Below are positions 48,254-50,553 of a DNA stretch of 64,000 bases, one piece after another (position 1 is the first letter of the stretch; every line of letters starts with the position of its first letter). A model generated the notes under the pieces. The model was not told the origin of the DNA. It ran no database searches and worked only from the letters and a program-made list of their open reading frames with translations. The stretch is from NCBI GenBank assembly GCA_029261895.1, contig JAJDAK010000017.1, positions 13,572 to 77,571 on the forward strand, in the 5' to 3' direction. The stretch comes from Deltaproteobacteria bacterium (GTDB taxonomy: Bacteria; Myxococcota_A; UBA9160; SZUA-336). The position numbers and the translations under genes were made by a program.

Positions 48254-48404
48254 TCCGAACCCGAAGGAGTCCATCCCATCACGCTCGCGATCGTGCATGG
48301 CCCTTGCCGGCCTCCACTCCCCACTTCTTGGCTGCTAGACTCTTTCCCATGCAATCATCAACAACACTTGTGACGGCCGCAGGTGAGCGACCCGCACGTT
48401 AAGC
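48254..48404 (+). repeat. attC site 1 (left end degenerate)
   Basis: Ends in core GTTAAGC (48398-48404); homologous to the three downstream repeats. Confidence 0.65.
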
Positions 48405-48409
48405 GGCAG

Positions 48410-48925
48410 ATGCAAGAGTTCGCCATTCGAGATGAGATCGACTCCGATCACTCGACGGTACGCGAGATCCATGAGGTTGCTTTCAGCCAGCCCAATGAGG
48501 GCAAACTCGTTGAATCACTGCGCGTCGCCGCATTCCCCCAAATCTCACTGGTCGCGGAGGTCGCCGGGGAGCTTGTTGGTCACATTTTCCTGTCGCCCGT
48601 CAGAATCGAGGAATGCCCTTCCAAGTGTGGATACGCGGGACTTGCTCCCGTCGGAGTAAAACCATCTGCGCAAGATCGAGGCATCGGATCAGCTTTGATT
48701 CGCGAAGCTCTTGCGCGCTGCGCGGATGTTGAGTGGTTCACCGTTTTTGTTCTTGGCGATCCCACCTACTACGCGCGGTTTGGATTCGTCCTTGCAGCGC
48801 CTTTGGGTCTTCGTTACGAGAGCGAGCAATTCGATTCACATTTTCAAGTGCTGGAGCTAAAACCCGGTGTGTTGTCGGGCGCACGAGGCTGGGTGCGTTA
48901 TCACGAAGTATTCTCTGATTTATAG
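48410..48925 (+). CDS. Cassette: GNAT acetyltransferase (YhbS-like)
   Basis: 'SLVAEV.GELVGHI.LSP', 'LAPVGV.P..Q.RGIGSALI', 'VLGDP.YY.RFGF'; cassette ends GTTAAGCGGCAG / CTGCCGCCCAAC are complementary. Confidence 0.9.
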   Translation: MQEFAIRDEIDSDHSTVREIHEVAFSQPNEGKLVESLRVAAFPQISLVAEVAGELVGHIFLSPVRIEECPSKCGYAGLAPVGVKPSAQDRGIGSALIREALARCADVEWFTVFVLGDPTYYARFGFVLAAPLGLRYESEQFDSHFQVLELKPGVLSGARGWVRYHEVFSDL

Positions 48926-48940
48926 CCTCGGTATACTGCC

Positions 48941-49092
48941 GCCCAACAAGCCTCGCTCGCAACCGTGCGCGCGCGCGACTTTGCGCGGCACCTGACGGCC
49001 TCCACTCCTTACACGTTGGCTGCTAGACTCTTCCACATGCAAACACCAACAACACTAGTGACGGCCGCAGATGAGCTGCCCGCACGTTAGGC
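48941..49092 (+). repeat. attC site 2
   Basis: Inverse core GCCCAAC 16 bp after the GNAT stop; core GTTAGGC 8 bp before the next ATG. Confidence 0.8.
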
Positions 49093-49100
49093 AGCATAAA

Positions 49101-49547
49101 ATGAAAATTTGCGTAGCAAGCTTTGTAACCGTACTCGCTGCACTTGTGGGCTGTGTAGGATTTTTAGAAGAAGCCGGACTCGCGACCCCTCGGGCTGTAG
49201 CCTCCGAGTATTTCGAATCAGTAGGTGGAGGAGTGTCTGTCGTCACCGCATCCCGCACTGCATTCCTCACAATCGCGGTAAAAGAGAACGAGAGTTTGCC
49301 TTCCGGCTCATTCGTTGAAGGTAGTTTCGAAGATCCCTGCGGAGGTCCGCTGATATTGGTATCTCCTAAATCTGGAACACAGGAGGGTGTTTTGATCTTC
49401 GAATCTGGCGACATTAGCTGCCTTCGACCTTCGCGGTCGTATGAATGCACCGTAACGGTTTATTCCGACAACACGAAGTCCAAAGCGATTTCAACCCACA
49501 GGCAGCTCATCCGTTCGGAGTTGGATTCTCGGTGGCTTGAAAACTAG
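49101..49547 (+). CDS. Cassette: hypothetical lipoprotein
   Basis: Lipobox LVGC; cassette ends GTTAGGCAGCA / TGCTGCCTAAC are perfectly complementary. Confidence 0.75.
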   Translation: MKICVASFVTVLAALVGCVGFLEEAGLATPRAVASEYFESVGGGVSVVTASRTAFLTIAVKENESLPSGSFVEGSFEDPCGGPLILVSPKSGTQEGVLIFESGDISCLRPSRSYECTVTVYSDNTKSKAISTHRQLIRSELDSRWLEN

Positions 49548-49559
49548 ATCGACTCTGCT

Positions 49560-49693
49560 GCCTAACAAGCCGCACTTGTGCGCCGTGCACGGCACCCGAC
49601 GACCGCCCGTTCTTCCTCTTGGGTTGCTACAATCTTCCCCATGCTAAATCTACAATTTCACGCGGCCGCGGGTAAGCGGCCCGTACGTTAGGT
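49560..49693 (+). repeat. attC site 3
   Basis: GCCTAAC...GTTAGGT; inner arms GCCGC/GCGGC pair. Confidence 0.82.
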
Positions 49694-49747
49694 CGCACGT
49701 ATGGGGCTGCTGATAATGCTATGGTTATCCCTGAAGGGAGGCGTAAC

Positions 49748-49960
49748 GTGAAGTTTCGTGTACTGATCGAGCAGGACGAAGACGGCGTTTTCGTGGCTGA
49801 GGTGCCCTCACTCCCCGGGTGCGTGACACAGGGCACAACCCGTCAGGAAGCCATTTCGAATGCCGAAGAAGCCATCGCGGCATATCTCGAAAGCTTGAAC
49901 GATCGAGATGAACCCATCCCACCCGCGATCAACGAAGAGCTTGTCGAAGTCGCCGTTTGA
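49748..49960 (+). CDS. hicB: Cassette: HicB-like antitoxin
   Basis: 'EQDEDG.FVAEVPSLPGCVTQG.T..EA..NA.EAI..YLESL'; GGGAGG RBS. Confidence 0.9.
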   Translation: MKFRVLIEQDEDGVFVAEVPSLPGCVTQGTTRQEAISNAEEAIAAYLESLNDRDEPIPPAINEELVEVAV

Positions 49961-50181
49961 GCAAGCTACCTAGCATCTCGGGTCGGGACGTAGTCCGGGC
50001 ATTCGAGCAAATCGGATACGAGCGTGACCGCCAGCGCGGTAGTCACATTGTGCTGCGTCATCACGATCCGCCTCATAGACGCCTTGTCATTCCAGACCAT
50101 AGAAGTGTCGCGAAAGGTACGATGCGCGCACTGATCCGCGAAGCAGGTCTCACGGTAGACGAATTCGTCCGTTTACTTTGA
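49957..50181 (+). CDS. hicA: Cassette: HicA toxin
   Basis: 'SGRDVVRAFE..GY...RQRGSH..L....IPDH..VAKGT...LIR.AGL..DEF'. Confidence 0.92.
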   Translation: MSKLPSISGRDVVRAFEQIGYERDRQRGSHIVLRHHDPPHRRLVIPDHRSVAKGTMRALIREAGLTVDEFVRLL

Positions 50182-50186
50182 CGTGC

Positions 50187-50343
50187 GACCTACCGAGCGA
50201 CCGCGCTTGTGCGCCGTGCACGGCACCTGCCGGCCTCCACTCCACACACCGTGGCCGCTAGAATCTTCCCCATGCAAACACCAACATCACTTGTGACGGC
50301 CGCAGGTGTGGGCAGGATAGCCAGCGCGGCCCGAACGTTGGAC
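50187..50343 (+). repeat. attC site 4
   Basis: GTGCGACCTA(-)C mirrors the cassette start GTTAGGTCGCAC; core GTTGGAC at 50337-50343. Confidence 0.75.
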
Positions 50344-50349
50344 CGCAGA

Positions 50350-50553
50350 ATGAAAGCGTTGTCGTTTCTCGTTCTGATCGCGGCGTTATGTACGTCATGT
50401 GCCAAGCCAACGACTCACGTGGATCCTGTATCTCCAGCGGTCGGCTTCCGGGCTACCGAACCGATTAGCCGAGTCTGCGAAGAAGGTCTCCGCGTAGATT
50501 CAATTTTGGCGCTCGTCGAACTGTTCGGCGACCCCGTATCTCACAGAGTGTAG
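50350..50553 (+). pseudogene. Cassette: truncated lipoprotein gene
   Basis: Signal peptide with LCTSC lipobox; only 67 aa; no following attC. Confidence 0.5.

Follow-up and report, generated by a model that had tools for sequence, protein, structure and literature searches.

We analysed a 64,000-nucleotide (nt) stretch of DNA from a Deltaproteobacteria bacterium (positions 13,572 to 77,571 of contig JAJDAK010000017.1, assembly GCA_029261895.1; hereafter the window, whose numbering is used for all positions given without a contig label), in which an integron array of five cassettes, all on the + strand, occupies 47.6-50.6 kb. The four attC sites of this array hold in their central loop a sequence resembling the -10 element of a bacterial promoter; exactly 7 pyrimidine-rich nt separate it from an ATG (at 48349, 49037, 49641 and 50272). 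The best-supported explanation, to which we give about even confidence on the strength of sequence comparisons, is that each attC carries its own promoter together with a leaderless start, translation of the short open reading frame (ORF) included. With this arrangement, the cassettes may activate one another independently of the standard integron promoter. The sites, with their inverse core (R'') and core (R') sequences, the -10-like elements as read from the sequence and the mini-ORFs are as follows.

48248-48407, + strand: attC1; R' GTTAAGC at 48398-48404, R'' degenerate
48333-48341, + strand: extended -10-like element TGCTAGACT in the attC1 loop
48349-48402, + strand: attC1 leaderless-type mini-ORF, 17 codons, with the stop TAA at 48400-48402 in the R' core
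48939-49095, + strand: attC2; R'' GCCCAAC, R' GTTAGGC
49021-49029, + strand: extended -10-like element TGCTAGACT in the attC2 loop
49037-49090, + strand: attC2 mini-ORF, 17 codons, with the stop TAG at 49088-49090 in the R' core
49558-49696, + strand: attC3; R'' GCCTAAC, R' GTTAGGT
49625-49633, + strand: extended -10-like element TGCTACAAT in the attC3 loop
49641-49691, + strand: attC3 mini-ORF, 16 codons, with the stop TAG at 49689-49691 in the R' core
50186-50346, + strand: attC4, of the long form (16 nt inserted in the 3' arm); R' GTTGGAC without a stop, R'' degenerate
50259-50264, + strand: -10-like element TAGAAT in the attC4 loop, preceded by CGC and not by TGC

The leader stops of attC1 and attC2 lie 7 and 10 nt before the ATG of the next cassette (48410 and 49101, respectively), with no GGAGG-like stretch in between. 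An earlier note on this DNA, made from the letters alone, had reported the -10 positions, the 7-nt spacing, the ATGs, the peptide lengths, the stops and the distances, and had stated that the ORF of attC4 runs in frame into the next gene. Reading the sequence again, we found all of these correct; from the attC4 module the frame stays open over 78 nt into the ATG at 50350.

For the identification of the repeats as attC sites, we took the inverse core R'' as RYYYAAC and the core R' as GTTRRRY, placed at opposite ends. The bases following GTT in attC2 are complementary to the R'' of attC3, and those of attC3 to the R'' of attC4 with one base missing, as expected if the cassettes once were circles. 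A repeat search of the window returned three copies of 127 nt (71-100% identity) and three copies of 78 nt. A profile built from the four repeats matched 25 places in the genome with nhmmer at E up to 1, of which 21 were below 1e-4, and a covariance model (R1) built from five short 125-nt attC copies on other contigs matched 22 places, the four window copies included. The family has about 21 full copies in the genome, and a GTTAG or GTTAA core is present in 17 of 21. Folding of bottom-strand DNA from six copies gave the full hairpin as the minimum-energy structure in four and alternatives in two, with modest z-scores (-1.0 to -3.2); these hairpins are long and imperfect, interrupted by bulges and an unpaired spacer. 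In the consensus structure, 26 pairs make up the stem. Across 72 attCs of relatives, 94.7% of cells were paired and two-sided changes occurred in 17 of the 26 pairs; none of 500 shuffles reached the observed value, and slid controls were paired in 21-41% of cells. Their cores, folds and covariation identify the four repeats as true integron attC sites, members of a single lineage-specific family, for which recombination by IntI is predicted.

A long-form subfamily can be distinguished within this family, comprising attC4 (50186-50346) and three copies on contig C55 (1520-1677, 3706-3863 and 4368-4541). Its members have a 16- or 17-nt insert in the 3' arm, matched in the 5' arm by extra repeats of a unit of about 16 nt, so that the stem is longer and the leader ORF is shifted out of the frame of the stop in the core.

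Within the attC loop, the -10 and ATG module is the part that has been kept. In an alignment of 18 genome copies made with MAFFT without reference to the motif (A1), the only invariant columns of the loop of about 55 nt are G81, G84, C85, T86, A87 and T91, which form the G..GCTA...T of the -10 part, and G101, C102 and A104, which form the GC.A of the start region; T100 of the ATG is conserved to at least 90%, and the remaining invariant columns are all in the stem arms. A column-information score was set aside in favour of this alignment, being circular for copies that had been chosen by the motif. Among the 21 full copies, TGCTAnnnT is found in 18 and CGCTAnnnT in two, and the last, although its loop differs, retains a TAGACT hexamer. 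An ATG stands 6-8 nt downstream in 18 of the 21 (15 at 7 nt, two at 6 nt and one at 8 nt). The conservation asserted by the earlier note is borne out to this extent, the module being the best-conserved part of the loop in A1. Its suggestion that the module accounts for the length of the sites (134-157 bp) fails, since the full module is already present in copies of 125 nt and the added length of the window copies consists of stem insertions.

The same layout opens ordinary genes of this genome. TGnTAnnnT with a downstream ATG was searched for across the genome, with all spacings of 0 to 24 nt allowed, and ORFs of at least 100 codons were counted as long. A spacing of 6 nt gave 41 sites, 31 of them long, and a spacing of 7 nt gave 53 sites, 24 of them long, the rest being mostly attC copies with short ORFs; every other spacing gave 5-35 sites with 0-16 long ORFs, so that peaks appear at 6 and 7 nt only. 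In the 55 long native sites the hexamer begins with TAG in 25 and is preceded by C or G in 38, and one long native gene uses the identical 9-mer TGCTAGACT. Ten of the 55 were chosen by hand for their recognised N-termini. In all ten, the match to a Pfam domain opens at profile position 1-3 and no more than 16 residues from the ATG (for example, RuvX 1-133 on 1-133 of 134, and DnaJ 5-67 on 1-63). Domains that begin so close to the N-terminus indicate that the native ATGs are the true starts and leave no room for a leader. Native genes such as ruvX, miaB, a dnaJ-like gene, msrB and a shikimate kinase gene share with the attCs a TGnTAGnnT-type element and 6-7 nt to the ATG; they differ in opening full-length proteins, whereas the attC copies open 16-18 codons. 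By sequence and spacing the attC module is a copy of the predicted native leaderless gene start of this genome, and this is the strongest point in favour of an attC-borne promoter and start.

The promoter-like element recurs well beyond this genome. Of 151 genomes from the class, 86 contain attCs by R1, the source genome counted, with roughly 445 matches in all. At the best-hit loci of 29 genomes, TGnTAnnnT is present on the sense strand in 57 of 72 attCs and on the other strand in none, against a mean of 2.8 and a maximum of 8 in shuffles of the 72, and at least one attC has it in 26 of the 29 genomes. A second count, in which attCs were redefined by their arm patterns alone to avoid bias from the loop of the model, gave the motif in 55 of 71 (shuffle mean 1.8, maximum 6). 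The consensus in relatives is TGGTAG(C/G)nT, with TG, TA and the last T fixed, two middle positions free and the flanks variable; hexamers of TAG type are also the native preference in the source genome. In five genomes of the same family, 14 of 29 distinct attCs have the motif. Among R1 matches in named loci of other phyla, it was found in 1 of 26 attCs. That single case (L115:4475-4565, minus strand, in a metagenome-assembled genome of a Microcystaceae cyanobacterium) has the same 9-mer, TGCTAGACT. Judged by this distribution the promoter-like element is old and class-wide, and the putative leaderless ORF is a local addition.

A sigma-54 promoter was also considered for the TGGTAG-N4/5-TGGCA arrangement of relatives. 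The sigma-54 consensus has GG and GC exactly 10 nt apart (TGGCAC-N5-TTGCW). The candidate was rejected by eye: the spacing in relatives varies from N4 to N5, the short attC type has no second element, and the copies of the source genome lack the GG.

In several partial copies in the genome the 3' arm is gone but the 5' part of the loop, -10 included, persists. A RidA-like protein of 158 codons, with a signal of lipoprotein type, begins at the module ATG at C79:14989. Shorter ORFs open from the module at C8:544-749 (27 codons) and C24:1247 (11 codons), and at C17:1628 the -10 is directly followed by an R'-like core, GGAGG and a gene.

A further link leads to a toxin gene. In the metagenome collection, a 22-nt stretch of the 3' arm recurs at one further place only, within the 5' coding part of a gene for a HigB-like toxin. 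This toxin starts MQSQ...TAAGERPF, and the start-codon region of its gene also matches the start of the attC leader ORF. The locus is L160:3445-3888 on a metagenome contig, with an identical copy in L161 and 22 of 22 nt shared with the attC 3' arm; the metagenome scan with this stretch returned no attC, only this one toxin-gene locus present twice. Whichever direction the DNA moved, the sequence match indicates that the stretch homologous to the attC module is a real gene start in the toxin gene.

Put together, the proposed mechanism would run as follows. Each attC would carry, in the central variable loop and on the cassette-sense strand, an extended -10 promoter without a -35 element (of the TGCTAGACT type), from which RNA polymerase carrying the housekeeping sigma factor would begin transcription at the A of the conserved ATG, 7-8 nt further on. 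The leaderless mRNA born inside the attC would lack the 5' arm and run into the next cassette; lacking that arm, it could not form the attC hairpin, and relief of the hairpin would be unnecessary. A ribosome would load on the 5'-terminal AUG, translate the 16-18-codon ORF across the 3' arm and stop in most copies at the TAG or TAA of the core GTTAGR, a few nucleotides before the start of the next cassette. It could then re-initiate on starts without a Shine-Dalgarno (SD) sequence (attC1 and attC2) or continue directly into the gene (attC4). Promoter activity and the start site are in our view fairly likely. Provided that the start site is correct, translation of the mini-ORF is likely too; coupling to the next cassette, which we deduce from geometry, is plausible and is the least certain step. 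The earlier note had described the attC as a portable expression unit that would free the array from the platform promoter Pc. The part of this that remains the best reading is the promoter, for which loop conservation, the 55 native ORFs and recurrence in the class argue; the ATG and ORF, missing in relatives, do not generalise with it. A wider proposal, uniting attCs as promoters throughout the class, cassette-by-cassette expression, a leaderless mini-ORF acquired in this lineage that brings ribosomes to starts without SD, and DNA exchange with the 5' end of the HigB-like toxin gene, is more tentative and falls somewhat short of even confidence.

A number of observations weigh against this explanation, in its ORF, its promoter and its loop sequence alike. 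With regard to the ORF, the 16-18-codon frame ends on the core TAG or TAA in only 12 of the 18 ATG-bearing copies. The six exceptions are three long-form copies (attC4, which runs in frame into the next gene, one that reads on and one that stops 12 nt past the core), one copy with a 1-nt deletion leaving 7 codons, one with a stop within its insert and one with a stop-less core. The distance from ATG to core has a mode of 49 nt, and the other lengths divide evenly between in frame (46, 52 and 79) and out of frame (48, 65 and 66). A GTTAGR core has a stop in one frame anyway, and substitutions in the ORF, inspected by eye, show no excess at third positions. Frame conservation is weak and not demonstrated; the earlier claim that spacing, frame and stop are all kept is true of the family in part, with an ATG at 6-8 nt in 18 of 21 copies, an in-core stop in 12 of those 18 and off-modal lengths split 3:3. 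Coupling would not be served at attC3, where the next gene lies 57 nt away and has its own SD. Across the genome, the next start is within 12 nt of the attC end in about 6 of the 12 copies with an in-core stop. Among 71 motif-bearing attCs of relatives, there are one ATG and ten TTGs at 5-9 nt from the motif, so that the ATG is nearly confined to the source genome.

These figures bear most directly on the alternative that the promoter is real and the mini-ORF a by-product, with the ATG and open frame having no selected role in translation or coupling. It would account for a -10 that is class-wide next to an ATG that is not, for the six of 18 ORFs that miss the core, for the evenly split length classes and for the divergence of the peptides; the ORF's second half is nothing other than the 3' arm of the stem, and several downstream cassettes have an SD of their own (HicB, C8:2869 and C79, for instance). 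It leaves unexplained that 18 of 21 copies retain the ATG at exactly the spacing of native leaderless genes, and that three partial or fused copies start longer ORFs at the module ATG. We consider it unlikely, if the best placed of the alternatives.

With regard to the promoter, the two-hexamer scan gave no match inside the attCs; the best -35 candidate by eye, TCCACT, matches at 3 of 6 positions. A -35 hexamer at 16-18 nt is not required for the extended -10 class, and with no usable -35 the case for a promoter rests wholly on the extended -10, the TG of which is missing from two copies, attC4 included. The copies of a genome have a common origin, so that the counts among them overstate independence. 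The sequencing runs that contain the stretch are three DNA runs from one biofilm metagenome study, and no RNA run is listed. In contigs of these three runs the repeats break the assemblies, and the few joints found between attC loops (49028 to 49633 in one contig; 48281 to 48988) may be cassette-loss variants, other repeat copies at 90% likeness or assembly chimeras; they were not used. The descent of the copies from one another, together with the well-known similarity of attCs within a taxon, as treated in PMC8352920, would also suit a repeat that has no function here and resembles a start signal by chance. Against that, neighbouring loop columns have diverged in the genome and the module has not, and in the 29 genomes, which belong to several families, the key positions are fixed amid variable flanks and a variable hexamer middle. 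Chance inheritance is quite improbable in our judgement.

With regard to the loop sequence, the pyrimidine-rich spacer could equally reflect a purine skew of the recombining bottom strand (PMC5027507). In relatives a G is near-fixed after TG (53 of 55) and at the third base of the hexamer (45 of 55), more than a -10 needs, which could reflect another constraint or shared ancestry. Both features fit a motif retained for recombination (folding, strand choice, cruciform extrusion or a host-factor site) and only incidentally like a -10: a pyrimidine-rich top strand is a purine-rich recombining bottom strand, and the two Gs stand where a -10 tolerates change. Skew does not explain, however, the invariant TG, TA and T with free middle positions, nor the exact match to native starts and the spacing of the ATG; moreover, the motif is retained in arm-less copies unable to fold and is missing from the attCs of other phyla. 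We rate this a shade below chance inheritance. That polymerase binding serves the attC itself, open-complex melting at the palindrome apex nucleating hairpin extrusion, is very improbable, being pure speculation that leaves the ATG unexplained and that draws on position only (the -10 is at the palindrome centre in every copy) and on the loop dependence of extrusion from double-stranded DNA described in PMC5027507.

Transcription starting inside an integron array, independently of the platform promoter Pc, has precedents. In Vibrio sp. DAT722 a promoter bridges an attC junction, with a -35 in the attC that recurs in other attCs and a -10 unique to one cassette (PMC2945992). Gene-less cassettes of Vibrionaceae carry promoters, and the start sites of one Vibrio fischeri cassette map within the attC (PMC11014356); ORF-less cassettes of oral bacteria likewise provide promoters inside arrays (PMC6557892). 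These known cases are single cassettes or junctions, whereas here a whole -10 and a start codon lie in the loop of nearly all attCs of a genome and the -10 is common to most attCs of the class. With group IIC-attC introns (PMC3001079), too, a promoter that faces outward sits at an attC and can express the downstream cassette; it is delivered by the inserted intron, whereas the one proposed here is part of the attC itself.

For the mini-ORF, the closest parallels are ORF-11 and ORF-17 in attI1 and a short ORF within attC (Jacquier et al. 2009, as cited in the review PMC8876359), the latter relieving the hairpin by termination-reinitiation (PMC8876359; also PMC11511950). As here, such ORFs pass through the att site and end just before a cassette start without SD. 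They lie on transcripts driven by Pc, with an SD or the preceding gene as the point of entry, in contrast to the ORFs of the present array, which would be leaderless and born in the attC. Sedentary chromosomal integrons have taxon-specific attC families, the Vibrio cholerae repeats being an example, for which covariance models have been made taxon by taxon (PMC8352920). The present family resembles them in its many near-identical attCs per genome and in arms that are alike across the class; it differs in that the loop holds a conserved -10, where PMC8352920 treats the loop as highly variable and nowhere uses the word promoter.

In the models set out in PMC11511950 and PMC11014356, cassettes are promoterless, their expression is set by Pc and the distance from it, and the attC affects expression only as an obstacle. 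We found no description of an attC-borne promoter family in full-text searches; supplements and many subscription journals lay outside this search, so a prior description is possible. What appears to be new is the putative promoter as a standing part of an attC family, promoters inside arrays being known as single cases. If true, this would be surprising for integron biology: distal cassettes and integrase-less clusters would not be silent, and expression cassette by cassette would replace a Pc-driven gradient with a silent distal memory. The costs and benefits of carrying cassettes would differ as well, a cassette excised as a circle would bring along a promoter directed at its own gene, and the conserved loops of chromosomal attCs, usually treated as variable filler, would have a concrete function.

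The array itself is made up of the following cassettes, preceded by a promoter-like site.

47570-47598, + strand: promoter-like site of the first (toxin-antitoxin) cassette, TTGCCG-17-TACAAT, with a GTG 6 nt later at 47605
47605-48239, + strand: cassette 1, a Gp49/HigB-like toxin in two frames and a HigA-like antidote (47937-48239)
48410-48925, + strand: cassette 2, a GNAT acetyltransferase (Pfam Acetyltransf_9, 7.2e-10); ATG without SD
49101-49547, + strand: cassette 3, a small lipoprotein-like ORF; ATG without SD
49748-50181, + strand: cassette 4, a HicB-like antitoxin (GTG 49748) and a HicA-like toxin (49957-50181)
50272-50553, + strand: ORF that opens at the attC4 module ATG and continues in frame into cassette 5, a small lipoprotein-like ORF with its own ATG at 50350

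The site upstream of cassette 1 is the sole two-hexamer promoter match in a scan of 47300-50800. Cassette 1 matches the Pfam families Gp49 (4.5e-07) and dnstrm_HI1420 (4.5e-15). Compared with a full-length relative, residues 3-43 of the toxin correspond to 47614-47736 and residues 41-107 to 47732-47932 in another frame; on this alignment the gene is frame-shifted or mis-assembled near 47732-47736. The GTG of its first frame, 6 nt past TACAAT, is itself in a leaderless layout. On contig C55, about 40-46 nt past the attC at 3706-3863, a cassette has its own TACAAT followed after 6 nt by an ATG opening 75 codons, so some cassettes seem to bring a leaderless start of their own too. The cassette 3 ORF matched no Pfam family. 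In cassette 4, GGGAGG precedes the GTG of the HicB-like gene, and the two products match HicB_lk_antitox (9.5e-13) and HicA_toxin (1.4e-16). Past the last cassette ORF (50350-50553) no further attC of the same family was found; a 157-nt gap (50554-50710) is followed by a converging gene of 516 codons.

Two contigs of this assembly of 100 contigs encode an integron integrase by the TIGR02249 model, C57 (412.5 bits) and C7 (338.4 bits; cut-off 265), and no match was found on the contig of the window (C9). With no Pc in sight on its contig, the window array looks like an integrase-less attC cluster. Contig C57 carries at 149-2840, on the minus strand, a complete reverse integron in which the integrase is oriented the same way as the cassettes. 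It sits downstream of a glutamine synthetase gene, and its first cassette ORF (857-1342) is followed by an attC (689-813) and next by a ParE-like toxin gene (149-457). Relatives of the integrase were found at 80 loci of many phyla, at 46-54% identity, and R1 matched attCs only weakly there.

Just upstream of the array, a minus-strand stretch at 47400-47453 resembles the 3' part of a tRNA gene, and a 22-nt copy of it at 91% lies 1.1 kb further upstream (46284-46305). ARAGORN reported no complete tRNA in 45500-48000. The depth of this stretch is 6-40 times that of its neighbours in the three metagenome runs, and loose contig ends continue as tRNA-like sequence. It could be the remnant of an old integration site at the edge of the array.

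An Rfam search of the window at gathering thresholds returned two c-di-GMP-I riboswitches and a tRNA only, and Rfam has no attC family. The tRNA is at 737-818. The two riboswitch aptamers lie in tandem on the minus strand at 5429-5513 and 5709-5804, about 200 nt apart, and score 60.5 and 60.1 bits.

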